DNA of 64,000 nucleotides from a virus. The DNA lies in IMG/VR virus record IMGVR_UViG_3300025030_000045, one strand, 5' to 3'. Shown here in pieces: positions 1 through 17,142 of this stretch. Each line of letters begins with the position of its first letter. Position 1 is the first letter of the stretch. The notes below the pieces were generated by a model. It was not told the origin of the DNA and did no database searches. It saw only the letters and a program-made list of their open reading frames with translations. The translations under genes and the position numbers were made by a program.

Positions 1-2028
1 ACTTATATCTTCTGTGAAGACGAAAAGGATTTGATTATCAAGTTCGTTGATTTCTGGTCGTCTGCGTATCCTGATATCTACACCGGGTGGAACACTGAGG
101 GATTTGACATACCATACATCGTCACTCGTATCAACAAGATTATGCCGACGAATTATGTTCTTCAACTTTCACCGATTCGGAAAGTATCGGCGCATAAGTA
201 TACCGACAACTTTGGTAACGAGCAGATCGGTTACTCAATTGAGGGCATCGTTCATTATGATTACAAAAACCTCTATGAGAAATTCTGTGTTGAACCAAGA
301 GAACAGAAGTCTCTGTCATATATTGCAAAAGTTGAATTAGGCGATGACAAGTTAGACTATGACGGGCCACTGAACGAGTTGTATGAAAATGATTTTCAGA
401 CATACATGTCATACAACATCAAAGACGTTCGGTTGGTGACAGCGATTGATAAGAAGCGTAACTATCTTGCACTTGCTATCACGATGACCTACATGGCGAA
501 ATGTGATTTCAAGGACGTCTTTGGTACAGTTGGTATCTGGGATGCATATCTCTACAACATTCTGCTGTCAAAAAAGATTCTTGCCCCACCGAAGAAATCA
601 AACATCAAAGGTCAGTTCCCTGGTGGATTCGTTGAGGACCCAAGACGTGGCCTTAACTACTGGGTTATGGTACGAGATATCGCATCTTCATATCCAAACT
701 CTATCATCACATATAACATGTCTCCAGAGACAATTGTTGATGAATCAATTCTACCAGATGAACTCAAGAACATCGCCATGCAGTTCGGTAATATTGAAAG
801 CTGTCTTGACCCCGATGTTCTTATGGAAAGAGTACAACCCGTCTTGGACAGATATGATGTCTGTATGGCACCAAACGGAACATTCTATCGTCGTGACAAG
901 ATCGGATTCATTCCAGAAATCGTTGCTGAAATTTTCGCTGGTCGTAAAGGTGCAAAGAGATCAATTAAGGAACTTGATGTATTAGAGAAGACACCTGACA
1001 TTAAGAACCAAATTGCTTCACTTGATGCAATTCAGGGAGCATTTAAGGTATTCATGAACAGTCTTTACGGTGCGATGTCAAACGAATGGTTTAGATATTT
1101 TGACCTTCGTATCGCCGCCGCCATTACATCAGCAGGTCAGACATCCGTTCGTGGTGCTGCAAGATACATTGAAAAGAAACTCCCGGATGTCAAAAACATT
1201 TACACAGACACCGACTCCGTTTTCCTTGACATGGTTCCGACTCTTAATAAACGTTTTGGGGATGAACTACCAGACAATGAAACGGTCGTACACTTCCTGT
1301 TGAAATATAGTGACATGGTTCTTGATCCTGTCCTCAAGGAGTTCTTCAACAAGTTGACGGATGGTCTTAACACAAAACAGAAGACTCTGACGATGGAGCA
1401 TGAATCTATCTCAAACGTCTGCTTGTTCCGTGAAAAGAAAATGTATGCCATGCGGTTGCTTGAGAACGAAGGTACATTCTACTTCGACAAAACGAAACTG
1501 AAGATCAAAGGCATCGAAGTGGTGCGGACATCAACACCGCAATTTGTTCGTGATGCCCTTAAACGAACACTTGAGTTAATCTTCGAAACGGCCGATCAGA
1601 AAGCCGTTAAGGATTATCTTGATTCACAACATGTTATCTTCAAGACATTGCCATTTGAGAAGGTTGCATTCCCTCGTGGTGTCAACGAATTCAACAAGTA
1701 CATTGGTCAAACGAAAGGTGTTCCGTTAGCACCAAGAGCCGCCATTGTCTTTAACAAATTCGTTAAGATGATGAATCTTGAAGATAAGTATCAACTGATA
1801 CACGAAGGCGATAAAGTTAAATACTGCTATCTCAAAGAACCAAATCGAGTTGGCTCTAATGCCATTGCTTGTTTAGATAAGTTCCCCGTTGAGTTTGATC
1901 GAATGTGTCCGATTGATTATGACCTTCAGTGGGAGAAGGCTTATATGAATCCAATGGAGAAGATCTTTGAACTGATCGGTTGGTCAATGAATAATAAAGC
2001 AGTCAGTTTAGAAGATTTTTTCTCCTAG
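1..2028 (+). CDS. 43: Family B DNA polymerase, T4 gp43-like (5'-truncated by window edge)
   Basis: ExoII GWNTEGFDIPY, ExoIII YNIKDV, motif A DIASSYP, motif B KVFMNSLYG, motif C YTDTDS, KGIEVVR; frame open back to base 1; C-terminal SLEDFFS clamp-binding-like tail. Confidence 0.97.
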   Translation, partial: TYIFCEDEKDLIIKFVDFWSSAYPDIYTGWNTEGFDIPYIVTRINKIMPTNYVLQLSPIRKVSAHKYTDNFGNEQIGYSIEGIVHYDYKNLYEKFCVEPREQKSLSYIAKVELGDDKLDYDGPLNELYENDFQTYMSYNIKDVRLVTAIDKKRNYLALAITMTYMAKCDFKDVFGTVGIWDAYLYNILLSKKILAPPKKSNIKGQFPGGFVEDPRRGLNYWVMVRDIASSYPNSIITYNMSPETIVDESILPDELKNIAMQFGNIESCLDPDVLMERVQPVLDRYDVCMAPNGTFYRRDKIGFIPEIVAEIFAGRKGAKRSIKELDVLEKTPDIKNQIASLDAIQGAFKVFMNSLYGAMSNEWFRYFDLRIAAAITSAGQTSVRGAARYIEKKLPDVKNIYTDTDSVFLDMVPTLNKRFGDELPDNETVVHFLLKYSDMVLDPVLKEFFNKLTDGLNTKQKTLTMEHESISNVCLFREKKMYAMRLLENEGTFYFDKTKLKIKGIEVVRTSTPQFVRDALKRTLELIFETADQKAVKDYLDSQHVIFKTLPFEKVAFPRGVNEFNKYIGQTKGVPLAPRAAIVFNKFVKMMNLEDKYQLIHEGDKVKYCYLKEPNRVGSNAIACLDKFPVEFDRMCPIDYDLQWEKAYMNPMEKIFELIGWSMNNKAVSLEDFFS

Positions 2029-2041
2029 CAGTATTTTTTAA

Positions 2042-2070
2042 TTGACATAGCCTCTTGATGATTGTATTTT
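2042..2070 (+). promoter_or_regulatory. sigma70-like early promoter
   Basis: TTGACA-17bp-TATTTT upstream of AGGAGG RBS and ATG 2107. Confidence 0.55.
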
Positions 2071-2106
2071 GCATCTGCGAATTACAATTCATCAGGAGGC
2101 TTTTTA

Positions 2107-2526
2107 ATGTCACTTGAAAAAACATTTGGTGTTTTGCGTTTTGAGATTAAGCGAGATGATAATGATCAAGATTTTGGTGGGATTTATACTTCTCGTTGCC
2201 ACCATGACGAAGTTCGATCTTATATGTCCAACAGCCCCCATATTTTTGCCCACCCGGAACCATACCGTGATATGCTCAGTGATATGGAAGAAGATGACTT
2301 TTGTGGATTTATTTCACCACAGCAGCTTTTCGATTGGTTCTATCCGAAGGATGTCATGTTCTTTAGTAGAGTCGGTGGGGTTTTTCTTAGTCAATACGAA
2401 ACCGATATTGCTCCGCGGGTTGGGCAGATGCAGACTCTTTTCAAAAAGAATGAATCGACCCTTAAACATCGATGCCAACTAGGATGTATGTTGGGTCAGC
2501 ACCAAAAAGATATGGAAGAGGAATAA
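2107..2526 (+). CDS. Hypothetical phage protein
   Basis: ORF with AGGAGG RBS before ATG 2107 (track start 2062 is an upstream TTG). Confidence 0.75.
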   Translation: MSLEKTFGVLRFEIKRDDNDQDFGGIYTSRCHHDEVRSYMSNSPHIFAHPEPYRDMLSDMEEDDFCGFISPQQLFDWFYPKDVMFFSRVGGVFLSQYETDIAPRVGQMQTLFKKNESTLKHRCQLGCMLGQHQKDMEEE

Positions 2527-2531
2527 AGTTG

Positions 2532-2560
2532 TTGACAAGTGATGATAAATGTTATAAAAT
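2532..2560 (+). promoter_or_regulatory. sigma70-like early promoter
   Basis: TTGACA-17bp-TAAAAT in intergenic region. Confidence 0.75.
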
Positions 2561-2595
2561 AAACACTTTGTCGATGATTGCCTTTAAGGAGAACA

Positions 2596-2931
2596 ATGAA
2601 GAATAAAATTAGAGAATTCTTGAAGACGTTGAGTATTGAGGAAATCAATATGATACCGTCATTGATCACCGAAGGATTAAATGAACGCCTTCTCGCCGAC
2701 CTTCAACCCGGAATGGATGTTATCACTCTCTGTTCTGGTTTCAGTTGTGGTGCGGGTCGCAGGTGTAAATTCATGGGTTTTGTAAAACAAGGGGAACCGA
2801 CTGACCGTGATTCTGTTTGGGGCGATGATTACGCCACATTCGGTGACGGTCATCGTGTTCAGTGGTTAGTAACACCAGATAAATTGAGTTCCAAGATCAA
2901 AATTTATCTCACTAACAAAGAAAAGGAGTAA
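2596..2931 (+). CDS. Hypothetical protein
   Basis: AAGGAG RBS, ATG 2596. Confidence 0.7.
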   Translation: MKNKIREFLKTLSIEEINMIPSLITEGLNERLLADLQPGMDVITLCSGFSCGAGRRCKFMGFVKQGEPTDRDSVWGDDYATFGDGHRVQWLVTPDKLSSKIKIYLTNKEKE

Positions 2932-2939
2932 CATCACGT

Positions 2940-4259
2940 ATGCTGTCAAAACAAATCAGTAGTCCAAAAGTCGGTCTCATCGTACAAGGTCGCAACGGAA
3001 TTCGGGAGGTCGTGCGGGTCTTTGACGGGATTAGCACAAACAGAGTTCCAACCCATTTCATCGATTACAAACAGAACGGCGTTGTCAAGTGCATCAGTCG
3101 CGAGTCATGGCAGGATTGGTGCCGCAAGAACAACGTCAACATCGTTTCCCAAAAGATTTCGGTCAATCCGACGACAATCAAGGAGTTCACCGACCCGGCT
3201 CAGATAAAAACGGCCCCGATTGGTATGGGTACCGGTGCTAAGAAGACGCACATTGCATTCTGTCTTGATGAGAGCGGTTCTGTTGCAACCATTAAGCGTG
3301 CACTTATTGCGGCCTACAACATCAATGTGGTCGGCATCCGCAATGCTGTCATGAATGAGGGACAGGAAGCGACAATGTCGGCATATGCTTTCGGCGATCG
3401 CTATCTCAAGCATCGTACCATTTATGAAGGAGTCCAGGTTCAAACGGTTCGCAGTCTCAATGACAATGATCTTAAACCCTCAGGGATGACCCCTCTGTTC
3501 GATTCCGTTCACCGCGCCATCCGCGCACTCGAGAAACTTGACGACGGTAATCCTGATACTGTTTTCATCATCACAGCCGTAACGGATGGTGATGAAAATG
3601 ATTCGCGTAGTCCCGGTGTCGCCGAGACACAGCGTCTTATTCAAGAAAAGGTCGGCTCTGATCGTTGGACCTTCACCTGGCTGGTTCCCAATAAGTACGT
3701 TAACTCATTTTGCAGTAAATATAAAATCAACCGCGGCAATATTCTTCCCTGGGATGAAACCAGCGATATGGGAACCGAGCAGGCTTTCCAAACAAACACC
3801 GAGGCATATTCCTCATTCTTTTCCGCCCGTTCGGCCGGCGCTAAATCGACCAACACCTTCTATTCCAATGTCGCCAATGTCTCCAAGGAAGAGGTTAAAC
3901 AGAAACTCGTTGATATTACTAGCGAGGTCTGCATCCTTCCGATCAACTCCACCGTCGAGATTGCGCCGTACATCGAAAGCGTTACTCGTAAAGCCTTCGT
4001 CAAAGGCAGTGCATTTTACATGCTCATGAAGGCCGAAAAGGAAGTTCAGGATTACAAAAAGATCGTCATTCGTGATCGTACCACCAAACATGTTTATACC
4101 GGTGGCGGTGCTCGCCAACTCCTCGGACTCCCTGCTTTCGGAACCGTCCGTCTTGTTCCCGGTGACCACGGTGACTTCGATATTTTCATCCAATCGACTT
4201 CGCTGAATCGCAAACTGCTGCCCGGTACCTTCGTCCTTCACTGGCCGACCGTGCGTTAA
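2940..4259 (+). CDS. von Willebrand factor A (vWA) domain protein
   Basis: MIDAS-like FCLDESGS, GMTPLFD, VTDGDEN. Confidence 0.85.
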   Translation: MLSKQISSPKVGLIVQGRNGIREVVRVFDGISTNRVPTHFIDYKQNGVVKCISRESWQDWCRKNNVNIVSQKISVNPTTIKEFTDPAQIKTAPIGMGTGAKKTHIAFCLDESGSVATIKRALIAAYNINVVGIRNAVMNEGQEATMSAYAFGDRYLKHRTIYEGVQVQTVRSLNDNDLKPSGMTPLFDSVHRAIRALEKLDDGNPDTVFIITAVTDGDENDSRSPGVAETQRLIQEKVGSDRWTFTWLVPNKYVNSFCSKYKINRGNILPWDETSDMGTEQAFQTNTEAYSSFFSARSAGAKSTNTFYSNVANVSKEEVKQKLVDITSEVCILPINSTVEIAPYIESVTRKAFVKGSAFYMLMKAEKEVQDYKKIVIRDRTTKHVYTGGGARQLLGLPAFGTVRLVPGDHGDFDIFIQSTSLNRKLLPGTFVLHWPTVR

Positions 4260-4268
4260 CAAAGAACA

Positions 4269-4299
4269 TTGGCGGTGCTGATATTATCAGCACCGCCAA
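4269..4299. terminator. Near-perfect palindrome, possible terminator or RNA-processing hairpin
   Basis: TTGGCGGTGCTGATA-T-TATCAGCACCGCCAA directly after vWA stop; no U-tract. Confidence 0.55.
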
Positions 4300-4319
4300 A
4301 TCATGAAAGGAACTAATTA

Positions 4320-4499
4320 ATGAAAAAAACGTCCAAGGCTAATTTCGTAGTCCTTCTCGGTATTGCAGCAATTATGAGCGGTTGTGGGGCAAGTGCTGCG
4401 GAGAAGCAGCGGGCATTGGTGTTCGTGAAGACGACACCGCCATCACCAAGAACACCAGTCGCTATGTACCCCACCTCTTTCGTTAAGGAGACAAAATGA
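4320..4499 (+). CDS. Small lipoprotein (59 aa, not in ORF track)
   Basis: MKKTSKANFVVLLGIAAIMSGC: basic N-terminus, hydrophobic core, lipobox-like MSGC; stop overlaps next ATG (ATGA). Confidence 0.65.
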   Translation: MKKTSKANFVVLLGIAAIMSGCGASAAEKQRALVFVKTTPPSPRTPVAMYPTSFVKETK

Positions 4500-5080
4500 A
4501 ACACTTTATTCTTTCGGTCATTCTCGTTCTCTCCCTTGTCTCTTCTGCATGGTGCTTGGGAGCAGAAACTGTTAGTTCGGCAGGATTCGGCGACTTAACC
4601 GTCGAGCAGCAGGCCGATGTATTAAAAAACATTGCATCGATGAAGGCTGCTTCTGTTACAGCAAAGACAGAACTATCAACAGCAAAGCAGGCCGAGGAAT
4701 GGGTTGATCTCGGACAGAAAGTTGGTAGTGCTCTCGGTGGCGCAGCAAGAGAACTTGGTGTTGCGGCGAATGATTTTGTGAAGACACCGGTCGGCAAGAT
4801 GGCGATGTTCATCATCATCTGGAAATTTGCGGGTCACAGCGTCGTCATGGTCTGTGCCGGATTTATAATTCTTATCTGTGGCATTTCTGTCATTACTTAC
4901 TGTATGCGGCGATCTAACCCATCCATCGTTGAATATGAAGCAAGTGGCCGAAAAATTTTCGGGTTTGAATTACGGACAGTTAAAAAGAGAAATAAACCAG
5001 CAGTAGATAATATTCTCGGGTGGGTTCTTTTGTATGGGTGTGTTCTCGTTGCATCCGTGATCCTCTTTGCCAACGCATAA
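4496..5080 (+). CDS. Membrane protein with signal peptide
   Basis: N-terminal signal peptide, 2-3 hydrophobic helices, AAGGAG RBS. Confidence 0.75.
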   Translation: MKHFILSVILVLSLVSSAWCLGAETVSSAGFGDLTVEQQADVLKNIASMKAASVTAKTELSTAKQAEEWVDLGQKVGSALGGAARELGVAANDFVKTPVGKMAMFIIIWKFAGHSVVMVCAGFIILICGISVITYCMRRSNPSIVEYEASGRKIFGFELRTVKKRNKPAVDNILGWVLLYGCVLVASVILFANA

Positions 5081-5110
5081 TAACCGCTTCACTTTAGATC
5101 GGATGACATC

Positions 5111-5284
5111 ATGACAACATTCATATTCATAATGATGATTGTGTGGACAATGGTTCATCTTTATGTGACACCATCAAATTATGGCCCGATTGAAGGTATT
5201 TTGAACAACCTATTATATCATGGCAGTTTGCTTATTGTTATAATCTGTTGGGTATTATTGATGTTCTTTTACAAATATCTTTAA
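5111..5284 (+). CDS. Small two-TM membrane protein (57 aa, not in ORF track)
   Basis: MTTFIFIMMIVWTMVHLY...SLLIVIICWVLLMFFYKYL fills the gap between genes. Confidence 0.5.
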   Translation: MTTFIFIMMIVWTMVHLYVTPSNYGPIEGILNNLLYHGSLLIVIICWVLLMFFYKYL

Positions 5285-5300
5285 GAGAGCGAGTGAGATC

Positions 5301-5594
5301 ATGGAATTATCTTCAACAAAAGCAAAAGCAATTATTTGGATGGCAAAAATGAATTTCCAAAAGGCCGTCGATGACTACAGCAAAGTCAGGGAAGAGATTG
5401 CCGGTATTGAAATAAGACGAATGATATATGATGCCAACAACAGAGATGATGGATTTGGTCCGGTGAGCAATCGTCCTGATGTCAGCCAATACCTCAAGGA
5501 CAAAGAAGTTCAAATGCTTGAGAAAAAGAAAGAGGCCGAAGCAATCTACGATTATGCCATCGAAGTCTTTCTCTTGAAACTGGATGACAAATGA
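5301..5594 (+). CDS. Hypothetical protein
   Basis: ORF in tightly packed operon. Confidence 0.65.
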   Translation: MELSSTKAKAIIWMAKMNFQKAVDDYSKVREEIAGIEIRRMIYDANNRDDGFGPVSNRPDVSQYLKDKEVQMLEKKKEAEAIYDYAIEVFLLKLDDK

Positions 5595-6109
5595 AAAAGC
5601 TTGATACACTAATCCACTTCTTCGATGACCCTTGTGATGATCTTCTCATCAAGGTTAACCCCGTCATTGACTACACCGTCAGGGCGCTATGTGTTGAACC
5701 TTATGAAGCTCATCCCAAGGGTTGTCCGAATGTTGGGAAGTGCGATCGGTGTCCACCAGAAGCACCACTGTTCGATCGTTTCTTTGATACATCAAAGCCG
5801 ATCTATGCAATCGTCAATGAGTTCGATCTTGGTTCACATGTTGAGCGACTGAGAGTGAAGCACCCCGATTGGAGTGAAAGACAACTACGATGTGTTCTCT
5901 ATTGGCAGGGAACAGCAAGGAAACAACTCAGGGAGAAAATCGGATACGCCCTTGCTTCTGAGAAATGTCAAGGATATGTTGCAACATGGTGTCCCGAAGG
6001 AATGGGTGTTAATGTTTCTGAGACTCTCGTTGAGGTTGGTATTCATCTCGAATGGCCCCCAACAAAAATCGCCCGGCAGGTTGCCTTCGTCGGTGAAAGG
6101 GCAAAGTGA
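5591..6109 (+). CDS. Predicted metal-binding protein (DUF2284-like)
   Basis: C...GCPNVGKCDRCPP and CPEGMGVNVSETL motifs. Confidence 0.65.
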   Translation: MKKLDTLIHFFDDPCDDLLIKVNPVIDYTVRALCVEPYEAHPKGCPNVGKCDRCPPEAPLFDRFFDTSKPIYAIVNEFDLGSHVERLRVKHPDWSERQLRCVLYWQGTARKQLREKIGYALASEKCQGYVATWCPEGMGVNVSETLVEVGIHLEWPPTKIARQVAFVGERAK

Positions 6110-6441
6110 TGGAATTCTTTACTGATGAACTGATTAAACTGAAAGAGCAAGAACGTGTTATCAAGAGACAACACCTAGACATCGAGGAAAAGATTCGGGC
6201 GATAGAGGATTTAAATTACCTCATAAAGACGTTTGGTATTGTCTGTGATTTCTTACCTCCATCTTTAGAGGACTGGACCCACTTTGAACACATGTTCGAA
6301 CGTTATGACGGAACAACACTTATCATCAATTATGATCGCCGTTGGGTTGGTTTTCATGAGTTAAGCGAATATGACCATATGCAGGAATTTATTTTGCCGC
6401 GATGGTACGAATTTAAAAAGGATGAGGACACAACAAAATGA
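6106..6441 (+). CDS. Hypothetical protein
   Basis: Overlapping start/stop with neighbours. Confidence 0.6.
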   Translation: MMEFFTDELIKLKEQERVIKRQHLDIEEKIRAIEDLNYLIKTFGIVCDFLPPSLEDWTHFEHMFERYDGTTLIINYDRRWVGFHELSEYDHMQEFILPRWYEFKKDEDTTK

Positions 6442-6674
6442 GTATGAGCGAGATCGAAGGAAAGGATGTCCACTGCGACATTTGTAAAAGACACGTTGGT
6501 CGCATCCGCGAAGGCAGTAAGTTGATGAAGGGAATGGTTTGCCTTTGCCCAACATGCAATGTCACAGAACAGTCAAGACGGATGCGCGATGATATGACTC
6601 GTAATGGCGTGAAGAAATCAGAACCAGATTTTAGTAGTATTTTCGGTGATGTGTTCAGTGGAAAAAATGATTAA
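6438..6674 (+). CDS. Small zinc-ribbon protein
   Basis: CDIC and CPTC pairs, GAGG RBS. Confidence 0.6.
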   Translation: MSMSEIEGKDVHCDICKRHVGRIREGSKLMKGMVCLCPTCNVTEQSRRMRDDMTRNGVKKSEPDFSSIFGDVFSGKND

Positions 6675-6682
6675 TATTTTTG

Positions 6683-6711
6683 TTGACATGGTCTTCATCT
6701 TGTGTTAAAAT
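6683..6711 (+). promoter_or_regulatory. sigma70-like early promoter with extended -10
   Basis: TTGACA-17bp-TAAAAT with TG one base upstream of the -10. Confidence 0.8.
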
Positions 6712-6738
6712 TGTTTCAAATCACAAGAGGAGATCAAG

Positions 6739-6972
6739 ATGAAATGCCCGGAATGTGGTAAGAACCATCGTTCAGAAGATTTGAAGTATCACTGCTACAT
6801 CAAGATCGAAAATCTGTGGGTACATTACATCATTCTCTGTTCAAACTTACCCGGCGGTGTTACCGAAGAAAATCTACTGTCGTATACGCAGCCGACCAAC
6901 ATTGAGTTTTACCGGGAAGTCAAGGCGCGCCGGGAAGCGATGGCGCTATATTACAAACCACAGGAAGGCTAA
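6739..6972 (+). CDS. Hypothetical protein (CxxC N-terminus)
   Basis: GAGGAG RBS. Confidence 0.65.
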   Translation: MKCPECGKNHRSEDLKYHCYIKIENLWVHYIILCSNLPGGVTEENLLSYTQPTNIEFYREVKARREAMALYYKPQEG

Positions 6973-7323
6973 GTGATGGAACACGACATTGATTCAATCA
7001 TCGCCCACATCATAGAGCTAACGAACCGGGTAGACAGAAATTTTGATGTATCTCCCGTTGAGATTCTGAATGCTTATACGATGGTGATCACCCATATCAT
7101 CATGACGAACCCTGTCATTGAAGATGGGTTGACTGAGACTGTCCCGAAAGCATTGATGATCATCAACCACAATATTTGGTTGACACGGTGGAAGTACGAA
7201 CAGTCTTTTGATTTTAAGAATCGGCGAATCGGTGATCATAACAAAGCGTATCACATTAGTCAGTTGAACTTTATGTTATCAAAATGCGAAAAGATTAAGA
7301 TTATCGAGGGGTTAAAGAAATGA
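6973..7323 (+). CDS. Hypothetical protein
   Basis: Packed ORF. Confidence 0.6.
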   Translation: MMEHDIDSIIAHIIELTNRVDRNFDVSPVEILNAYTMVITHIIMTNPVIEDGLTETVPKALMIINHNIWLTRWKYEQSFDFKNRRIGDHNKAYHISQLNFMLSKCEKIKIIEGLKK

Positions 7324-7694
7324 AAACTCGTTTAATAGAAGCATGCATTGATTGCGTTGGTAATGTCTATATCAGGAATCAGAATCGTGGGTGTTTATCA
7401 CGCGTTTGTGTTGACGCTAAACGTATATTTTCTGATATTGTTGACATCATGCAGGTCGGGAAAACTTACACCATCGAGGTTAAGATTTCGAGTCTTCCTG
7501 TACTGTCTAAAACTGATGGTGTAACATTACATCGTGATGGCGCGTTTTGGGGACTCTCGAAAAACAACTATCGTACTAGTCTCACGGGTGCTCATGAAAG
7601 GATTCTTAACATCAGTCTAAAGTATGGTGGGTTTAATCCTTACCATATTTTCAAACGGAGAGTCACCGCAACAGTGATATCGGTAACCGAATGA
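7320..7694 (+). CDS. Hypothetical protein
   Basis: ATGA overlap with previous gene. Confidence 0.6.
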   Translation: MKTRLIEACIDCVGNVYIRNQNRGCLSRVCVDAKRIFSDIVDIMQVGKTYTIEVKISSLPVLSKTDGVTLHRDGAFWGLSKNNYRTSLTGAHERILNISLKYGGFNPYHIFKRRVTATVISVTE

Positions 7695-7927
7695 GTACAT
7701 CAGCCTGGCAAAGTTCTATGGATGATGCAAGAGAAGTTAAACAGATTCATGCCAATAAGAAGAACCGATGTTCAAATTGGCGATGTTGGTCAGCCGACGT
7801 CTTCGTTGTCAACATCCTTTTTCACCATTCACTCGTCACCTTTAAATGTTCGTGTTGTGGAAATATTTTCCAACTGAATCGTTTTAAAGCATTGAACAGA
7901 AAACCTTATGTCTGGGAAAAAAGTTAA
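7691..7927 (+). CDS. Small Cys-rich hypothetical protein
   Basis: ATGA overlap; CSNWRC and CSCC. Confidence 0.55.
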   Translation: MSTSAWQSSMDDAREVKQIHANKKNRCSNWRCWSADVFVVNILFHHSLVTFKCSCCGNIFQLNRFKALNRKPYVWEKS

Positions 7928-7994
7928 TGCAAAGATTGCTGACGAATTAGATAAGATTTTCTGATCTTATCCCAAAACATAAATAAACACATCA

Positions 7995-8055: not shown

Positions 8056-8781
8056 ATGTCAACCAAAGATAGTCTCGGAGATCGTATGAAAGGCTTCTAT
8101 GAAGCCAGGTCAAAAACATATTTAGCTCGAAGAACACCGGTCATCCTGCGTCTTGATGGGAAAGCATTCCACACGTTCACTCGTGGTTGTGTGAAACCGT
8201 TTGATGAACGCCTACAAGGTGCAATGGAAGCGACTGCAAGATTTCTTTTAGAAAACATTCAAGGGGTCAAGTTGGCATACACCCAGTCTGACGAGATCAC
8301 CCTGCTGTTGACTGACTATGATCGTCTTGAGACAGACGCCTGGTTTGATTACAATGTGCAGAAGATGTGTTCGATTGCCGCGAGTATGGCGGGCGTTAAG
8401 TTCACGTTAGAGTATGCAGATGATGACACTCATTTGTGTGATGTCGACCCAGCATACTTTGATTGCCGCGCATTCAACATTCCGAAAGAAGAAGTCAGCA
8501 ACTGTTTTTATTGGCGGTGCCTTGACTGGGAACGGAATTCGGTTCAGATGTTGGCACAGGCTCACTATTCGGCTAAACAACTTCATGGCGTATCATGTGC
8601 AATGGCAAAGGACATGTTAATCTGTCAGAAGAATATCAATTGGAATGAATTGGCCGATAAGTGGAAGTATGGTTCATTCATTCAACGTGATGAATTCGGT
8701 GATGTATCAATATCATCGGTTAACCTCAAGAATGATCGTTCATGGATTGACGAACTCGTAAACAGAGGTGAATATGTTTAG
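8056..8781 (+). CDS. thg1: tRNA(His) guanylyltransferase Thg1-like protein (3'-5' nucleotidyltransferase)
   Basis: RLDGKAFHTFT, YTQSDEITL, QKMCSIAAS, FDCRAF, YWR...RNS motifs. Confidence 0.92.
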   Translation: MSTKDSLGDRMKGFYEARSKTYLARRTPVILRLDGKAFHTFTRGCVKPFDERLQGAMEATARFLLENIQGVKLAYTQSDEITLLLTDYDRLETDAWFDYNVQKMCSIAASMAGVKFTLEYADDDTHLCDVDPAYFDCRAFNIPKEEVSNCFYWRCLDWERNSVQMLAQAHYSAKQLHGVSCAMAKDMLICQKNINWNELADKWKYGSFIQRDEFGDVSISSVNLKNDRSWIDELVNRGEYV

Positions 8782-9154: not shown

Positions 9155-9155
9155 A

Positions 9156-9252: not shown

Positions 9253-9253
9253 A

Positions 9254-10666
9254 ATGTCTCTTTTTACACCAACGAATATCCAACCGCTTGATCCAACGAA
9301 AGAAAATGTCGTCTGCTTCATCAATAAGAATGCAGAGAATTTTAGGGATCATTGGGGATTTGCATTTCCGATCATCGATGCGCTGAAGGAAAAGTACAAC
9401 CTGCTTTTTGTTGTGCTCAATGATCGGACATTCCCAACTCTTTATCCTAACTGCTTTGTGTTTAACAACAAAGAGTTAACCCGCATCAATGAAACCGAAT
9501 TTAAGCGAGTAAAGGAATCAGACAATTCTCGTGATCATAATCAATCAATCCTAGAACGGGAGTTCGAACACTCGTTTGGGCAATTCAAAATTCACCGCAT
9601 CATTCTGCTCCAAGATTATATGTTTGCACTTCCGTTGATTCCGTATGTCCCCGCCAAAAAGCACCGAGAACTCCATGATATGCAAAACGAGTACTTTGAT
9701 TATGTTGGTGACGACAACGAACGAATGAATATCATTGATGAGACGAATGCATCAATCGTAGAAAACTTCAACGAACGTGTCAGCGTCATCGCATTCTCAA
9801 TGTGGGATAAGAACCTCTTTTCCAACCTTGTGTTGTGGATGTACAAGAAAAATAAAGAACACTTCAAGATGCTCTATACATCAATCATCGATCCCGGCAT
9901 CTTCTTCGCATTCTTTGAGATGAACGGAATTCCACTCACAAATTATTACTTCGTAGATGACAAACGTGGCACCCGTAATCTTTCGGCATTTCCTTTGGCT
10001 GAACTTCAACATCTTGTCTATGAAGAACCAATAAAGGATGATTTTGATTTCTTCGGAGCATCGCTACCAACTGAAATCGAAAAGGACAAAGATTTCATTT
10101 TCTTCGGTTCGATCTTTTATGAAAAGGGTCCACGTTTGACAATGTGGGACACCTTTCTTCGCGACCTTGATGCATCAAATGCCGAACTCTATATACCGCT
10201 CAAAGCAAACGGTGTGTACTACGGAAAACTTCAACAAGGTTGGCTGGACAAAGCAAAGACGATCGGTGGGCGTGTTTATGATGAAGTTGTCAATCATCCG
10301 TGTTATAAGGGTTACCTCCACCCAGATAATCTTTATGCACAGATTCAACGCTTTAAGTATTCGCTTATCCTACGATGCGTGTCGACATTTGATTCGTTGA
10401 ACTTCCGCCCCGTACTTTATGCCAAGTACAACATCCTTCCTTTCTTTGATGTTGGGTATGATCCTGAATATCTTCAGATTCCAAAGGAGATTCAAGATAA
10501 GCTTATCGTAAAGAATTCCGTTGACATTATGGCGAAAATGGATTATTATAACAGTCACGATGCCGAACGGCTCGCCCTCCTCAAATCCCTCCGCGATCAT
10601 TTCAATGTAGACTTTTGGCTCAATAGACAATGGAGTAATGATGACATCACAAAATACTATTCTTAA
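9254..10666 (+). CDS. GT-B glycosyltransferase, T4 beta-glucosyltransferase-like (GT1)
   Basis: C-terminal half follows the T4 BGT pattern by eye: DFIFFGS..R, YKGYL, KYSLIL, LNFRPV, ILPFFDVGYD, LIVKNSVDIMAKMDYYNSHDAERLALL. Confidence 0.65.
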   Translation: MSLFTPTNIQPLDPTKENVVCFINKNAENFRDHWGFAFPIIDALKEKYNLLFVVLNDRTFPTLYPNCFVFNNKELTRINETEFKRVKESDNSRDHNQSILEREFEHSFGQFKIHRIILLQDYMFALPLIPYVPAKKHRELHDMQNEYFDYVGDDNERMNIIDETNASIVENFNERVSVIAFSMWDKNLFSNLVLWMYKKNKEHFKMLYTSIIDPGIFFAFFEMNGIPLTNYYFVDDKRGTRNLSAFPLAELQHLVYEEPIKDDFDFFGASLPTEIEKDKDFIFFGSIFYEKGPRLTMWDTFLRDLDASNAELYIPLKANGVYYGKLQQGWLDKAKTIGGRVYDEVVNHPCYKGYLHPDNLYAQIQRFKYSLILRCVSTFDSLNFRPVLYAKYNILPFFDVGYDPEYLQIPKEIQDKLIVKNSVDIMAKMDYYNSHDAERLALLKSLRDHFNVDFWLNRQWSNDDITKYYS

Positions 10667-11288
10667 CCTCTGGGACTTTGACGGTACGCTTTTTGATACC
10701 GAACCAGCCCTCTATAAGGTATACAGTCAGGCCCTCCGAGAAGTCACCGGACATATACTTACACCCGAAGTGTGGCAAAGTATTTTTGGAAAAAGTGCAT
10801 ATGCACTTGAAGAACATTACGGCATCTCGCATGAAACGATGGTGAAGGTCCGTGATCGTAAATACGAACTCTATCCACACACACTGTACGATGGCATTTT
10901 CATGATCAATCATGTCAGGCAATTCTGGGATCACCCATTGGCGCTGAATTATGTTTGTACACATACCAATCCTGATGTTGCCGAGACGATACTCGATAAG
11001 TTCGAGATTCGCCCTTGGTTCAAACGTGTCTATGGGCTCAAGGATGTCGGTCATAAGGCAAAACCAGACCCCGCTATGTATCTCTTGGCGATGGGTGTTG
11101 GTATCATCGAGTCGCATGGAATTATCAAACACATAAATATTTTTGAAGATTCGGACTTTGGTCTGGGGGCTGCGGCGAATACGAAAAATGCATTTGATGA
11201 AGAACTCTACAAAGCATTTCCACCCGAGACTAAACTGACAATTTATAAAGTCACCAATGAAGGTATTAATGAATATGAAGCTCCTTAA
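10638..11288 (+). CDS. HAD-superfamily phosphatase / phosphomutase-like
   Basis: Motif I DFDGTLFDT, motif II CTHT, motif III KPDP, motif IV FEDSDFG. Confidence 0.9.
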   Translation: MMTSQNTILNLWDFDGTLFDTEPALYKVYSQALREVTGHILTPEVWQSIFGKSAYALEEHYGISHETMVKVRDRKYELYPHTLYDGIFMINHVRQFWDHPLALNYVCTHTNPDVAETILDKFEIRPWFKRVYGLKDVGHKAKPDPAMYLLAMGVGIIESHGIIKHINIFEDSDFGLGAAANTKNAFDEELYKAFPPETKLTIYKVTNEGINEYEAP

Positions 11289-12249
11289 AGGCGGGTCAGC
11301 CTCATCCGTTTATTTAGATGAAATACATAATGAAATCCTTAAGACCGTTAGAGTTACCGACACTAACGGTTTTAATCATCTTCGTGACCAGCACTGCTGG
11401 ATGGCCTATCACAAAGAAGCCCTCCCTAACTATTTTCCGCATATAGGCGACGACTTCTTCAAAGATGGTCTGTATTGCTATCGGATGGAATTTGTTGAGG
11501 GTAAAACTCTCGACAAGATGCTTGATAATAAATTCATCGCAAGAAATTTACTTGAAGATGTAATGCACACCGTGGTGAGTATATCAGACATTGATTTCAT
11601 TCCAAAAGGAAACACGACATTCACGACATACATTGATCGACTCAAGGGTCACCTCCGCCGTCTGAAGAAAGAGACGATCTTTGTTGATATGTTGATGAAA
11701 AAAGAATTTATCCTCGTAGAGAACGGTGTTGAGAAAGTCATACCAAACATTGACTTTATTAAATTCATTTCTATGTTGACATCAATGACATCGTACATGG
11801 ACAAGCAGTACTCAAACTGCCACGGCGACCTCACTCTTGAAAACATAATCATAAACGAGTATGAAGATTTTGGCTGCAACCGCATCAAGTTCATTGATGA
11901 CAACTTTATCTTCAACGGGTGGAATTCATATCTGCTTGATTATTCAAAAATATTTCAAAGTCTTCATTTTAATTATGAAGAAACATTTTCTGATTCGTCG
12001 TCGTTAATCATTGACGATGGTAAATATTTGTTGACTTATAACACAGAAAATGTTAAAATTAAAGAATACTTATTTGGACATGGTTGTGGATTTTTTACCG
12101 ACGCCGTTCGTGATGCGTCACTCGTACTTGAGGTAACGCATTACATTCGTATGCTTATCTATAAACTCGCCATCAGTCAAAAGGATTTCATCGTTGCATA
12201 TATTCGCACCTGCCAAGCCTATCACGAATTAAAGAAAAGAGGATCATAA
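11269..12249 (+). CDS. APH/choline-kinase-like phosphotransferase
   Basis: Gly-rich LKGGSAS, YRMEFVEG hinge, Brenner motif HGDLTLENI, KFID, DYSKIFQS. Confidence 0.85.
   Translation: MNMKLLKGGSASSVYLDEIHNEILKTVRVTDTNGFNHLRDQHCWMAYHKEALPNYFPHIGDDFFKDGLYCYRMEFVEGKTLDKMLDNKFIARNLLEDVMHTVVSISDIDFIPKGNTTFTTYIDRLKGHLRRLKKETIFVDMLMKKEFILVENGVEKVIPNIDFIKFISMLTSMTSYMDKQYSNCHGDLTLENIIINEYEDFGCNRIKFIDDNFIFNGWNSYLLDYSKIFQSLHFNYEETFSDSSSLIIDDGKYLLTYNTENVKIKEYLFGHGCGFFTDAVRDASLVLEVTHYIRMLIYKLAISQKDFIVAYIRTCQAYHELKKRGS
12031..12059 (+). promoter_or_regulatory. Internal sigma70-like promoter upstream of radical SAM gene
   Basis: TTGACT-17bp-TAAAAT with TG extension, same architecture as the intergenic early promoters. 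Confidence 0.5.
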
Positions 12250-13152
12250 ATGGAAGATATCAAATATCTAATGTTATCACCAACAAGCAGGTGCAACCTT
12301 GCTTGTGAGAAGTGTAACAGAAAAGGTTCGGGAACCGATTTCCCCTGGGATGATTACAAGGCCATTATTTTTTCATCCTTCCCCAACTTGAATTTTGCAA
12401 AACTTCAAGGAATGGGCGAACCATTCATGGCCAAGGACCTCGGTCGGATGGCAAAAGAACTTAAGGATCATTATCCAGGAATCAAGACTCTCACAATCAC
12501 CAACGGAACTCTTAATTACAATGCTCCGGCATTTGATGATGTCTATAAGAATCTTGATATGCTTTATGTCTCGATTGATTCTGTGAACAATATCAGCGAA
12601 ACGATCGGCGCTCATGCCGTTCTTGCAACGCTTTTTGAGAAGTCAAAGGAGTTTGGGTTCCAACTATATGTCAACACTATTCTTTTTCCGTGGAACCTCA
12701 AGTGCATTGCCGATGTGAAGAGGCTTGTTCAAGAGTATCCTGGTGTGAAGATGCGTGTCCAACATCAACAATGTTGGAATGATGTATCAAACATCGAATC
12801 AGTGGACATCGAAGTCTTCAATAAATTCGTTGCACCGTTGTTTGATGATGTTATGGAATACATCGGCCGTGATGATTTTTATTATACCGAATGTGATTGG
12901 AATACTAAGCGGATTCAGATTGACGAGCTCGGTAACATCCGTCTCTGTTGTCTGAAAACTGATAACTCTATCATCGGTCAAATCACCGATCTTGGACTAT
13001 ATAAAGCTGTTGCTGAACGGATCAAAGCAAGAATATCTGTTGATGCGTGGCCGATGGTGATTCGTCCACATTTTGGTCTTTGTGAGACATGCACATTCGT
13101 TCAGCTGAACCCAATTAACAAACAGATCTTGAAGATTTTGGAGGAAAGATGA
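12250..13152 (+). CDS. Radical SAM enzyme with C-terminal SPASM/twitch-like Cys cluster
   Basis: CNLACEKC (CxxxCxxC), QGMGEP, ITNGT, VSIDS; C-terminal C..IDELGNIRLCC..CETC. Confidence 0.9.
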   Translation: MEDIKYLMLSPTSRCNLACEKCNRKGSGTDFPWDDYKAIIFSSFPNLNFAKLQGMGEPFMAKDLGRMAKELKDHYPGIKTLTITNGTLNYNAPAFDDVYKNLDMLYVSIDSVNNISETIGAHAVLATLFEKSKEFGFQLYVNTILFPWNLKCIADVKRLVQEYPGVKMRVQHQQCWNDVSNIESVDIEVFNKFVAPLFDDVMEYIGRDDFYYTECDWNTKRIQIDELGNIRLCCLKTDNSIIGQITDLGLYKAVAERIKARISVDAWPMVIRPHFGLCETCTFVQLNPINKQILKILEER

Positions 13153-13856
13153 TTCCAAAGGCTGCTCTTATTCTTGCGGCGGGCGCGTCAACCCGCTTCG
13201 GAAAAAATAAACTTCTTACTAAGATCGGCGACAGAACTCTTCCACAGCAATGTGTTGAGTTTGCGATCAATAACGGTATGGATGACGTCTATGTCACGAT
13301 CAGTAAAAGAGATTTCTTTTTCCTCAACGATCATAAGACATTGACACATCCAATAATCGAATCATTGTCTCCATATGATTGCCTTATTAACCTTCACTAC
13401 CAATTCCAGAATGAAGAGGAGAAGGGGCCGGGAGCCGCTATCAAGGTTTGGCAAGGTATCATAAATAAACCTTTCGTTTGTCTGTTCGGTGATAACTATT
13501 ATTCGGGTTCTCTTCCTTACATGGATTTCAATGAATATGATTGCTTTGTGAGTTATCGTGAACTTGAAAAGAATTCGCGGAACTTACAACTTGCATATCT
13601 TGACGGTAACATCGTCATCGAGAAGCCCCATGCATTCACCGAAGGAAAGTTCTTCTGCGGCTATACGGCATTCAGCGAAAAGGTGTTTGACCAACTCAAT
13701 AACTGCCTCATATCTGGACGCGGCGAATATGAAATCACTGATCTGATTAACTTTATGGATCGGAGATGTTTCCTTTTCAATAGTCTCGTGTGGGGTGACA
13801 TTACTTTTGCTGGAGATGAAGCAAAAATCGTTGATATGATTGGAGGAAAGAAATGA
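13149..13856 (+). CDS. Sugar-1-phosphate nucleotidyltransferase (RmlA/GalU-like)
   Basis: ALILAAGASTRFGKNKLL, FGDN, IEKP, SGRGEYEITD. Confidence 0.9.
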   Translation: MIPKAALILAAGASTRFGKNKLLTKIGDRTLPQQCVEFAINNGMDDVYVTISKRDFFFLNDHKTLTHPIIESLSPYDCLINLHYQFQNEEEKGPGAAIKVWQGIINKPFVCLFGDNYYSGSLPYMDFNEYDCFVSYRELEKNSRNLQLAYLDGNIVIEKPHAFTEGKFFCGYTAFSEKVFDQLNNCLISGRGEYEITDLINFMDRRCFLFNSLVWGDITFAGDEAKIVDMIGGKK

Positions 13857-13996
13857 ATTTTTGGCAATTTTTAAATCTGAGACCTGTACTATCATTCTTT
13901 ATTATTTTTATCTTTTGTGCAACCATTATTGATGTCGTGCATTCACTTTCTACGAAAACAGTAGAATGCAAGCATGGATGGGTGGTGCCCAAGTGA
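13853..13996 (+). CDS. Small membrane peptide (47 aa, not in ORF track)
   Basis: GGAGG RBS; ATGA and GTGA overlaps couple it to both neighbours; one hydrophobic helix. Confidence 0.5.
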   Translation: MNFWQFLNLRPVLSFFIIFIFCATIIDVVHSLSTKTVECKHGWVVPK

Positions 13997-15282
13997 AAGT
14001 TGGATATGGGAAAATAGGCAAGAGCATTCTTTTTAATGAATCGCTGTGGGCAGCGATCGGCGGAGACTGTGAGGCGCCGGCCGTCATCACCTCTGTTGCT
14101 CGCTATAACCCCGATGACACTTTCTATCTGATCGGTAAGTCTGACTTCTCTCGATTGTCAGATGCTAAACGAAAAGAGGTTGCACCGAATAACAACATCA
14201 TTGATGTTTGGGGTGATTTCCGCCGTGGAGATAATGTCACTGACTTTGTCGTCAATTGGTTTGAGAAGAATAATGTCAAACTTGACACCGCATTCTTTTA
14301 TGGTGGCCCAGCCGGTAATGCAAACATGCCTGATAAGATCAAGACGGTAAAGGGAGATCGGATTGCTAAGGTTCTTGAGTGCTTTGAGAACTATGTCGGT
14401 CCTATCGCTCACTATCTGAACGTATCTGGGATTGACTATTTTACTCTAACGCCGGACCCGCGATATCATCCTATTCGTGCACGAGACCTCTACAATATCT
14501 CGAAGTTTGCACTGTCTCAATTCAATTCAAAGGACATGCAAGTCAAGCATATCGTCAACTATGAGGATCAGTCATATCTGTTCTCTAAGGTGCCGACATT
14601 CTATACCGCGCTTGAAACGGTGTTCCTCATTGATAAAAAGAAACCCGACCTTCTTGAACTTGCCAAACATAAAAAGAAGAAGTTCATGGTGGTGTTGAAT
14701 GAGGGCGGCAACGGTGGATTGAGCCGCGGTCCTGAGCTTAAGCGCTGGGTACTCAATCACCTTGAGGACGTTGACATTTACGGTAAGTGGTCTGACGAGT
14801 GGATGAAGGATACTCGATTCAAAGGATCGGTGAAATTCCAAACTCTTCAGGATATGTTGCCTGATGTTAAATACACCTTCATCATACCGATTCAGCGTGG
14901 TTGGGCAACGATGAAGTTCTGGGAAGTATTACAATATGGCATCATTCCGTTTATGCATCCTTGGTACGACGAGCAGATGAATCTTGATGTTCCAGAATTC
15001 ATTCGTGTGGAAACTCCCGAAGAACTATTTGAAAAAATTGAGTTTTTGGAGAACAACCCGGCTGAATACACCGCCCTTCTCGAGAAACTTAACCAAGTTC
15101 TCAAGAATAAATATTACACCGGTGAACATATCAACAACCTCATCATGAAGTCGTGCTACAGGGTTGCCGGAAAAGATGCCAGTTTATATGAATTAACCTC
15201 CGAGAAAATGTTGCAGATTGATTCTGGTCTATCGGTGAAGATGAAAGCCGAAGGAACCGATCTGTCTGACTTCTTCTCCTAA
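13993..15282 (+). CDS. GT-B glycosyltransferase, T4 beta-glucosyltransferase-like (GT2)
   Basis: Probable GTG start 13993; N-terminal KIGKS..IGGDCEA, DPRY, VDIYGKW, FKGSV, KYTFIIP, TMKFWEVLQYGIIPFMHPWYD, IRVETPEELFEKI; ends DLSDFFS. Confidence 0.7.
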   Translation: MKVGYGKIGKSILFNESLWAAIGGDCEAPAVITSVARYNPDDTFYLIGKSDFSRLSDAKRKEVAPNNNIIDVWGDFRRGDNVTDFVVNWFEKNNVKLDTAFFYGGPAGNANMPDKIKTVKGDRIAKVLECFENYVGPIAHYLNVSGIDYFTLTPDPRYHPIRARDLYNISKFALSQFNSKDMQVKHIVNYEDQSYLFSKVPTFYTALETVFLIDKKKPDLLELAKHKKKKFMVVLNEGGNGGLSRGPELKRWVLNHLEDVDIYGKWSDEWMKDTRFKGSVKFQTLQDMLPDVKYTFIIPIQRGWATMKFWEVLQYGIIPFMHPWYDEQMNLDVPEFIRVETPEELFEKIEFLENNPAEYTALLEKLNQVLKNKYYTGEHINNLIMKSCYRVAGKDASLYELTSEKMLQIDSGLSVKMKAEGTDLSDFFS

Positions 15283-15905
15283 TGAAAGGATGCTCAATGT
15301 CAAAAATTTTTACAGATGCATATGGCCAGGAAATTTCGATTGGTGATCTCATTTTCCATTCACCAAGAACAAAATACGGCCGGGCACGTATTGGTGTTGT
15401 CATTAGTACTAATATGCACGGTGTACGATATGTTAAAGCCAACGTAATTCAAGAACCGGGCTTACCCGACAACTTTAGTATTTCTTCTTGTAAGAGATCA
15501 CGTAACTGTATTGTGATGAAATTCGACAGTATTTCAAATCAGAACAGCAAAGAGATGACAACACTTGCTGGGTTAGTTGAACATGCTGTTGGGTTGATTA
15601 ACAAAAGAGAAAAGTTCAATCACAAAGACCAACTCGGACAAGACATTAATGTCGGTGACTTCGTTGTTTATGGGGCGAGTGCTTTTGGTGGTGGAGCGGT
15701 GACCCGTTGTGGCATCGTTACAAAGCTTAACCAAACATCCATTACTTACTTGACGATGATGCTCAAGTGGACCGGAAGAGAGTATAAAAATAAACCCAAA
15801 CTCACCTGTGCTTTTGCCCCCGGGCAAGCCGTCATCATCAAGAATAAAGAGTATGACACCCCAGAATTAAGGGCCCTCAAGGAGGCATTCAAAAATGTCA
15901 AGTAA
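15282..15905 (+). CDS. Hypothetical protein with internally duplicated small beta-barrel-like domain
   Basis: DAYGQEISIGDLI..RIGVV and DQLGQDINVGDFV..RCGIV repeats. Confidence 0.65.
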   Translation: MKGCSMSKIFTDAYGQEISIGDLIFHSPRTKYGRARIGVVISTNMHGVRYVKANVIQEPGLPDNFSISSCKRSRNCIVMKFDSISNQNSKEMTTLAGLVEHAVGLINKREKFNHKDQLGQDINVGDFVVYGASAFGGGAVTRCGIVTKLNQTSITYLTMMLKWTGREYKNKPKLTCAFAPGQAVIIKNKEYDTPELRALKEAFKNVK

Positions 15906-17142
15906 AAAGAAGAATATCAAATGGGCGTCGATCATCCCTCTCGCCGGCGGTATGTCAATCGGTATGGAACAGGCAATCGGTCACAAACCAGAATTCATCA
16001 TTAGCTTCCCGGGTTTCCAGGCTAATGATGCTCACCTTCGTAACTATTGGCCGGATGTCCCTTATCATATCATCGACGAGAACTTCGACAAGGGTGCGGT
16101 ATTCAAACCGGGCAGTATTGACATCGTAAACTCCGTGTGTCCCTGTGCAGGACTTTCGATGTTGAACACAGGTGGCAACAAAAATTCTGGTAAAGCTCGT
16201 GGATCAGATGCCGTCCAAAATCAGCATATGTACAATTCATCTCGCTATGTTCTTGAGCATATCCAACCGAAAGTTCTGTTCGGTGAAAACGCCCCGGGAC
16301 TTATCACCAAGATCGGTGAAGGCGTTCAGGCTGAACTCTACAAGATTGCTGAAGAATTCGGTTATTCATTCTCGATTGTCAAGACGAGCACCAAGTATCA
16401 TGGCATTCCCCAGAATCGTATTCGTACATTCTTCTTTTTCTGGAAAGCGGACTCTGCACCGATCCTCAATTACTACGATCGCACGAAAGAGACCAAGAAC
16501 ATCGTTGATTATCTCAAGGACATCCCTGCAGATGCTTCTTATCAGGACACCAATGATGTCCTTCGTGAAAAGATGTTCAAGAACTACACCTTCCTATTCA
16601 TGCGGGACAAGTACGGCGCCGACAATTGGCGAGAAGTCATGTGGAAAGAGAACAGCAAAACAGTCTGGGCTCATGTCTGTAAGAACAATCTCGTCGAAGA
16701 ACTGAAGGAATTCTCCTACAAGATCAATGACCGTCGTGGTATCAAAGAGACCGAACATGCGATCAAAAAGTTTGCTGCTGGACTCGGTATCTGGGATGGT
16801 TCTGTTCATCTGTTCAAAGACGAGATCAATGCTGTCGTCGGTCGTAACATGGCTGACTCTATTCACCCGACAGAAGATCGTTATATGAATGCCCGTGAAT
16901 ATCTCCACCTCATGGGACACCCTCATGACTATGAACTCACTGACATCAAGTGGCAACACCACCTCACACAAAATGTCCCCACCTGCACATCAAGAGATTG
17001 GACATATGAGGTTATTAAATTTATCGAAGGTAAACTTCCTTTCTCTGGTGTCAGGGACCTTCGTCAGGATAACATCAAGCAGTGCATCAACACAAAAGGT
17101 GTCAATGTCGAGAACGAGTTCTCATCTGACTTTTTTGCTTAA
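15895..17142 (+). CDS. DNA cytosine-C5 methyltransferase-like protein
   Basis: Motif IV CPCAGLS, VI GENA, VIII HGIPQNRIRTF, IX AREYLHLMGHP, X QNVP; motif I atypical (IIPLAGG). Confidence 0.85.
   Translation: MSSKKKNIKWASIIPLAGGMSIGMEQAIGHKPEFIISFPGFQANDAHLRNYWPDVPYHIIDENFDKGAVFKPGSIDIVNSVCPCAGLSMLNTGGNKNSGKARGSDAVQNQHMYNSSRYVLEHIQPKVLFGENAPGLITKIGEGVQAELYKIAEEFGYSFSIVKTSTKYHGIPQNRIRTFFFFWKADSAPILNYYDRTKETKNIVDYLKDIPADASYQDTNDVLREKMFKNYTFLFMRDKYGADNWREVMWKENSKTVWAHVCKNNLVEELKEFSYKINDRRGIKETEHAIKKFAAGLGIWDGSVHLFKDEINAVVGRNMADSIHPTEDRYMNAREYLHLMGHPHDYELTDIKWQHHLTQNVPTCTSRDWTYEVIKFIEGKLPFSGVRDLRQDNIKQCINTKGVNVENEFSSDFFA

Follow-up and report, generated by a model that had tools for sequence, protein, structure and literature searches.

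In phages T4 and RB69, the tails of the DNA polymerase gp43, the late sigma factor gp55 and gp33 bind the gp45 sliding clamp (PMC9690074, PMC6212786). A clamp-tethered C5 cytosine DNA methyltransferase (MTase) is known as well, since the PIP box of DNMT1 binds PCNA and methylation follows replication (PMC9690074). Phage hypermodification pathways that combine a methyltransferase, a 5mYOX (TET) enzyme and glycosyltransferases have also been described, with gp45 or the clamp mentioned as neighbouring genes only and not as a docking partner (bioRxiv 10.1101/2023.12.21.572611). Here we examine 64,000 nt of DNA from an uncultured T4-like myovirus (IMG/VR virus record IMGVR_UViG_3300025030_000045; this whole stretch is called the window), in which a C5-MTase and a transferase resembling T4 beta-glucosyltransferase (BGT) end in short peptides similar to the tail of the phage's own polymerase. 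Peptides that interact with a clamp are thus known already, as is tethering of a C5-MTase to one (DNMT1-PCNA); a full-text literature search found no paper that reports clamp tails of the polymerase type on a phage methyltransferase, transferase or dioxygenase.

The window resembles each of these systems in part. As in the T4 and RB69 peptides that bind gp45, a short hydrophobic/aromatic motif follows an acidic or Ser/Thr-rich stretch at a C-terminus or in a disordered loop, and several proteins of one phage carry it (T4 gp55 ends ..SLDFLYEAND). In contrast to T4, the putative clients are a C5-MTase, BGT- and alpha-glucosyltransferase (AGT)-like transferases and, in the cultured phage Melnitz, a Tet/JBP enzyme, all absent from the T4 client list, and the window form L-x-D-F-F, for which binding is predicted, fits the PIP-box core h-x-x-a-a and not L-D-F-L-F. 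With DNMT1, the phage enzyme has in common the combination of a C5 cytosine DNA methyltransferase with a short replication-clamp motif, clamp binding again being predicted, but the DNMT1 motif is N-terminal and the enzyme carries out maintenance methylation of hemimethylated CpG, whereas the phage motif is C-terminal, the enzyme probably serves bulk protective modification and the origins are independent. The described MT/5mYOX/glycosyltransferase pathways likewise place a phage-specific C5-MTase, acting after replication, beside DNA glycosyltransferases and sugar-tailoring genes; the window cluster differs in having a radical SAM enzyme and no TET/JBP gene.

A preliminary description of this DNA had reported DFF peptides on four proteins and suggested that they tether DNA modification to the clamp. 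All four peptides are present, and the genes and peptides are as follows, with the two enzyme tails read from the sequence.

1..2028, plus strand: T4 gp43-type family B DNA polymerase, 3´ part (Pfam DNA_pol_B, 3e-31), the 5´ end of the gene lying beyond the window
2005..2025 (stop to 2028), plus strand: polymerase C-terminal peptide SLEDFFS followed by the stop, a presumed gp45-clamp-binding motif
9254..10666, plus strand: GT1, a 470-aa transferase-like protein whose homologs neighbour those of the MTase and GT2 in related loci
10037..10057, plus strand: internal DDFDFFG at residues 262-268 of the 470 in GT1, lying in a variable loop and a candidate for clamp binding
13966..15282, plus strand: 'GT2' transferase, 438 aa, GT-B fold (the database copy, identical protein P0121, starts at 13993 and has 429 aa)
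15259..15279 (stop to 15282), plus strand: GT2 C-terminal peptide DLSDFFS followed by the stop, after a linker
15895..17142, plus strand: C5 cytosine DNA methyltransferase-family enzyme (Pfam PF00145, 4e-20)
17119..17139 (stop to 17142), plus strand: MTase C-terminal peptide FSSDFFA followed by the stop

The window polymerase is only distantly related to its closest phage counterparts (~36% identity, in cyanophages and Methylophilales phage Melnitz). By BLASTP, its last 200 aa align with T4 gp43 right up to the end of both proteins, with KAVSLEDFFS over KA-SLDFLFG, and on this alignment the tail is positionally homologous to the gp43 tail. The T4 tails, read from NC_000866, end ..KASLDFLFG for gp43 and ..SPSLDFLYEAND for gp55. 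The window peptides match the gp45-interaction form ([ST]-L-(D/E)-F-h type), as SLEDFFS, DLSDFFS and SSDFFA at C-termini and as DDFDFFG in a loop.

Endings of this kind are rare in the window. DFF occurs eight times as a tripeptide in the 20,814 residues of its 96 non-overlapping open reading frames (ORFs). Three of these occurrences lie exactly at positions -4 to -2 from the C-terminus, and the only ORFs ending in this way (3/96) are those for the polymerase, GT2 and the C5-MTase. The number of ORFs expected to have DFF within the last five residues is 0.05 from composition and 0.11 from the proteome-wide DFF rate, giving P = 2e-5 to 2e-4 for three or more. The looser pattern [DE]F[FILMV].{0,2}$ adds one protein, the tail sheath (NFAEFVGV); this match was set aside as structural, as was ELP.DF..G in a neck protein (window 26440-27210; also in the related contig G001 described below). 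Together with complete-genome censuses of two relatives, these counts bear out that such tails are not common among unrelated ORFs. The DFF codons differ across the three tails (GAT TTT TTC, GAC TTC TTC and GAC TTT TTT), as do the Leu codons (TTA versus CTG), the sequences downstream are unrelated and no DNA repeat joins the three gene ends, indicating that the similarity is at the level of protein.

The MTase has profile matches in PDB to M.HaeIII, DNMT1 and M.HhaI, and the alignment shows no variation in its catalytic-type motifs PC, EN and QxRxR (C84, E131-N132 and Q173-R175-R177); by these matches, it is a member of the C5 cytosine DNA MTase family. The AlphaFold model of GT2 (pLDDT 91.7) has a GT-B fold, for which the best PDB match by Foldseek is T4 BGT (1qkj; E 2e-9, TM 0.5-0.6, ~10% identity). 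Since other GT-B enzymes score nearly as high, it is the context that points to DNA as the GT2 acceptor. The GT-B model also rules out membership of CAZy family GT2, which has a GT-A fold and a DxD motif; 'GT1' and 'GT2' are gene labels here. We also noted homologs of the BGT-like transferase, 29% identical, in the 86-kb Enterococcus phages Planchet, 9183 and TJE4 (records OX422066.1, NC_055907.1), which are not T4-like.

The two enzyme tails lie on flexible appendages outside the folded cores, as the preliminary description had supposed from an apparent linker: pLDDT falls below 50 over the last 14 residues of GT2 and the last 9 of the MTase, the cores being modelled confidently, and the length of the linker varies among homologs. 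GT2 homologs extend 33-63 aa past a conserved core motif if they are tailed, an extra linker of ~30 aa, and ~13 aa if they are tail-less, which argues that the tail is an appended module of linker plus peptide. Hydrophobic endings of lineage-specific forms, here called dialects and described below, occur in 103 of the 120 best MTase homologs. For GT2, 44 of 120 homologs have dialect endings and 76 do not, which suggests that this tail has been gained and lost repeatedly. A module of variable linker and short hydrophobic/aromatic peptide is thus conserved in homologs, and the motif is kept where the proteins are 35-60% identical.

A scan of viral contigs with the single MTase protein gave no match; an alignment-based MTase scan combined with a second scan using GT2 gave 160 loci. 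The tails in these relatives fall into four dialects, ..LEDFF, ..LDDW, ..QLF/K.LF and ..S[IT][IF], and in each dialect the MTase and transferase tails appear to copy the tail of their own polymerase. In one LDDW genome, the polymerase ends ..SLDDW, GT2 ..ELDDW and the MTase ..QSDW; the corresponding ends are ..ELDDW, ..GLDDW and ..EAEQW in a second, and ..NLDDW (polymerase) and ..QMEEW (MTase) in a third. A complete 205.6-kb LDDW genome (G007) has acidic-W ends on the polymerase, the MTase, GT2 and two small proteins only, among 358 ORFs. The small proteins comprise 85 aa (..KELEEW; L193:7274-7531, minus strand) and 181 aa (..SPSSDW; L191:1471-2016, minus strand); the gene for the first adjoins a gp55-like gene, and its product could be a gp33 analogue.

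In the LF dialect of huge-phage relatives, the polymerase ends ..IVRTQLF, and ..K.[SKNQ]LF is the ending of one or two MTases, GT2, AGT-family transferases, a GT25 transferase and a sigma factor of the sigma-70 family. The sigma-70/ECF-type sigma factors in huge-phage relatives end ..NQNKLF (L003:3616-4224) and ..ETNELF (L032:2177-2776). These sigma tails suggest clamp-coupled late transcription outside the gp55 family, with the logic of T4 gp55 recurring in an unrelated sigma family. In the II/TF dialect, the polymerase ends ..NLIYTTSLF and the MTase ..KKYKV[KN]S[IT][IF].

We assessed this co-variation by permutation, with each of 32 MTase clusters (60% identity) represented by a single locus and polymerase matches required to cover the polymerase C-terminus. 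Tails from the same genome were more similar than expected for MTase and polymerase (p = 0.001, n = 8) and for MTase and GT2 (p = 0.006, n = 12). In the same permutation, no significant signal came from the C-termini of homologs of GT1, the nucleotidyltransferase or the kinase (p = 0.17-0.67), and no similarity to the MTase tail was found at the C-termini of the sugar-nucleotide enzyme homologs. We consider the co-variation the strongest evidence obtained here.

The window genes lying between GT1 and the MTase, other than GT2, have no such tail. Their C-termini, read from the sequence, differ from the DFF tail, and families were assigned by Pfam/PHROG to all except the 207-aa protein.

10638-11288, plus strand: HAD hydrolase, no tail
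11257-12249, plus strand: kinase-like protein, no tail
12250-13152, plus strand: radical SAM enzyme, no tail
13149-13856, plus strand: nucleotidyltransferase, no tail
15282..15905, plus strand: 207-aa protein between GT2 and the MTase, no family assigned, no tail

The first four (10638..13856) are presumed to function in sugar-nucleotide synthesis. The separation of tailed enzymes acting on DNA from tail-less sugar-nucleotide enzymes, proposed in the preliminary description for the window, thus holds there and extends to the relatives.

The relatives sharing the window dialect provide a link to gp45. In these T4-like phages, the polymerase ends in [ST][LI]EDFF[GSV], the MTase in [ST]LE[AEQ]F[FILM]x and the BGT-like or neighbouring transferase in TLEDFF[STAG], GLESFF or DLTHFFG, and the motif is practically absent from the remaining ORFs of these loci. 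A gp45 is encoded by each of the four long contigs of this dialect that were searched, and an L-x-[DE]-F-F-type tail is present on gp55 in three relatives. A 68-kb T4-like contig, G001, encodes gp45 (phrog_223, 5e-72) along with a gp55 (phrog_234, 2e-49) ending SDLDEFMK, a polymerase ending ATLEDFFV and an MTase ending LQLDEFMV. In two further genomes encoding gp45, gp55 ends GPLNEFFKEDE and GPLTDFFDK. A complete 170.7-kb relative has the strict motif on gp55, the polymerase and the MTase only, among 227 ORFs.

G001 also encodes a homolog of the T4 alpha-glucosyltransferase (alpha-GT; PF11440/phrog_2888, 6e-63; 28% identity), which has been proposed to ride the clamp and would in that respect be a DNA sugar-transferase comparable to those of the window. 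The homolog (L088:2428-3705) ends ATLEEFFA, a tail of the polymerase type, and aligns with T4 a-gt (L215:10625-11827) only to residue 406 of 425, such that its linker and tail form a 19-aa extension absent from the T4 enzyme. This extension is relevant to the disputed binding of alpha-GT to gp45.

In phage Melnitz (MZ577097.1), which shares the window dialect, the polymerase ends TTLEDFFG and the MTase is unrelated and tail-less. The gene after this MTase (L002:5208-6194), annotated 'hypothetical protein', codes for a Tet/JBP dioxygenase (PF12851, 3.6e-11) whose ending, NLNDFLGE, is close to that of the polymerase. Two other phages with homologous MTase or GT genes, S-TIM5 and Pseudoalteromonas phage XG4, had no recognisable tails on these and were uninformative: S-TIM5 is of a different genus and carries no such tail on its annotated polymerase, and in XG4 the 26.6 kb read turned up no family B polymerase.

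The fourth peptide, internal to GT1, was examined by alignment. GT1 had no match in Pfam, PHROG or PDB sequences; 76 homologs were found in metagenomes. The loop carrying DDFDFFG is flanked by the conserved blocks ELQHLVY and FFFAGTIF..KG, the latter of which presumably corresponds to the start of the C-terminal Rossmann domain of GT-B/GT4 enzymes. Among the 76 homologs, the loop ranges from 10 to 56 aa and is deleted in some. It contains [IL]DDW in all four LDDW-dialect genomes, with unrelated flanks, and NLL[DE][DE]F or nothing in LF-dialect genomes; at least 20 of the 76 homologs have [LFI]D[DEN]W and many others DLFDMF, VDFFDE or DLFDE. A precedent for such a location is T4 DNA ligase, which binds gp45 via a dispensable internal loop, EGLDFLFDA (PMC6212786). 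The motif that the preliminary description placed in a probable inter-domain loop of GT1 lies, by alignment, in a loop that is variable and follows the dialect; a docking role for DDFDFFG is plausible, with weaker support than for the two tails.

Taken together, the rarity, conservation and co-variation of the tails, the gp55 tails of relatives and the division between tailed and tail-less enzymes support the clamp reading proposed in the preliminary description. The C-terminal ..L-x-D-F-F-x peptides of the MTase and the BGT-like transferase, and probably the GT1 loop, are likely short linear docking motifs of the kind found on the polymerase tail, with a gp45-type clamp as the likeliest partner. 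In this model, which follows the T4 tethering of gp43, gp55, gp33 and DNA ligase to gp45, clamps at the fork and those remaining behind it would carry the modification enzymes on a flexible linker. The tail would sit in the hydrophobic pocket of the clamp, the linker would let the catalytic domain reach the DNA, and methylation and sugar transfer would thereby be concentrated on newly made phage DNA. The soluble enzymes making the activated sugar would be tail-less because they do not act on DNA. We infer that these enzymes physically bind the clamp, that they do so at the fork and that both transferases use DNA as their substrate; the acceptor base is likewise an inference. The chemical masking of phage DNA would probably be hitched to freshly copied DNA.

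Several observations weigh against docking on a clamp. The gp45, gp55 and gp33 genes of the window phage lie outside the 64-kb window, where no clamp gene was found among ~60 ORFs by PHROG/Pfam. No gp45- or beta-type clamp was detected with PF09116, PF02916, PF02768 or phrog_223 in LF/II-dialect genomes (G002-G006; loci L028, L003, L078, L020 and L043), one of which is a complete genome of 405 kb. The gp33 of Melnitz does not end in the motif, nor does the gp55-like protein of an LDDW-dialect genome have the dialect tail. The independent dialects number only four, and some pairs within a genome mismatch, for example a polymerase ending SLEDFFS with a distant MTase ending SLQKLNSVL. Of the window tails, that of the MTase is the least canonical, with Phe at -7 and no Leu at -6. 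Finally, the T4 alpha-GT ends ..KEQFDIITK (NC_000866), with no such tail, and its interaction with gp45 was not reproduced in 2025-26, using C-terminally His-tagged enzymes.

With regard to the clamp-negative genomes, the tails of the LF and II dialects are reminiscent of the bacterial beta-clamp motif QLxLF. These phages may therefore use the clamp of their host or a phage clamp that has yet to be described. The huge-phage LF dialect (polymerase ..RTQLF; MTase/GT ..K[SNQ]LF; sigma ..NKLF) ends like the bacterial motif QL[SD]LF, whereas the DFF tails of the window have neither the Q nor the LF end.

The missing clamp genes in the LF/II dialects and the tail-less state of some classical clamp clients (Melnitz gp33 and the LDDW gp55-like protein) would also fit a tail that docks on another hub of replication or late transcription, such as a single-stranded DNA-binding protein, a helicase loader, RNA polymerase or a compartment-targeting receptor. 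We regard this as unlikely, given that the polymerase tail is positionally homologous to that of T4 gp43, whose partner is gp45, that polymerase and gp55 are the signature gp45 clientele and that genomes of the window dialect encode gp45. To our knowledge, no other T4 hub recognises C-terminal LDFLF-type peptides.

Short hydrophobic C-termini can also serve as degrons, and the tails might be functional without docking, as a shared degradation tag or as a regulatory or auto-inhibitory element timing activity. This appears very improbable: a degron would be unexpected on a replicative polymerase and a late sigma factor, and neither following the polymerase dialect in four lineages nor shifting into an internal loop of GT1 would be expected of it.

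Coincidence, or a signal in the DNA at gene ends (a T-rich terminator or promoter read as Phe-Phe), is hardly credible, for although a run of T is present in GAT TTT TTC and the MTase stop is followed by a hairpin, the chance probability is that given above, the LDDW and K.LF dialects behave in the same way without being T-rich, the motif is conserved across homologs as divergent as those noted earlier, and the codon and co-variation data effectively refute this reading, a DNA repeat or terminator included.

We also noted other features of the window. Its layout runs from the end of the polymerase gene through small genes and the modification cluster (9254-17142) to T4-type neck, tail, terminase, portal, head and baseplate genes, a structural region broken up by homing endonucleases. 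Megablast found no near-identical record to the window region in the phage collection, and scans for exact 40-mers gave no match in viral or metagenome contigs. Directly upstream of the cluster is a homolog of Thg1-like tRNA-His guanylyltransferase (8056-8781, plus strand; phrog_4717, 1e-83). A 25-nt imperfect inverted repeat (17139-17192) begins at the MTase stop codon; it is terminator-like and is probably where the modification operon ends. A 171-aa protein (24117-24632, plus strand; phrog_18642/phrog_2086) ends ..ADLFDYSED, hydrophobic/aromatic residues followed by acidic ones, the layout of the T4 gp55 tail; it may be a further clamp client, and by PHROG it is not a gp55 homolog. The N-terminal fragment of a split large terminase (30549-30992, plus strand) has IEDFFEML 14 residues before its end, which is probably unrelated to the clamp motif.

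The mechanistic question addressed here is how a phage modifies each target base of a fast-replicating genome after synthesis and ahead of host nucleases. The only physical link to the replisome proposed so far is that between T4 alpha-GT and gp45, now contested, and C-terminal tags may mask interactions between a clamp and a tail. Tails that resemble that of the polymerase and change with it in four lineages provide a concrete, readily testable hypothesis, and Melnitz, with a Tet/JBP tail resembling its polymerase tail, provides a cultivable system for clamp tethering. A broader proposal, about which we have more doubt than confidence, is that in many large phages all clamp clients carry a tail code specific to their lineage, with modification enzymes (C5-MTases, Tet/JBP enzymes and AGT-, BGT- and GT25-type transferases) as regular members beside the polymerase and the late sigma factor, and that ..QLF/K.LF in huge phages with no recognisable clamp would hitch polymerase, sigma factor and modification enzymes to the host beta clamp or an undescribed phage clamp. 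If this proposal is correct, the tail could serve to predict which uncharacterised phage proteins act on replicating DNA. Clamp docking, if correct, would supply a sequence rule by which enzymes that act on DNA can be told from those that make sugars in hypermodification clusters not yet characterised. The tethered phage MTase would then be a counterpart, in viruses of prokaryotes, of DNMT1-PCNA.

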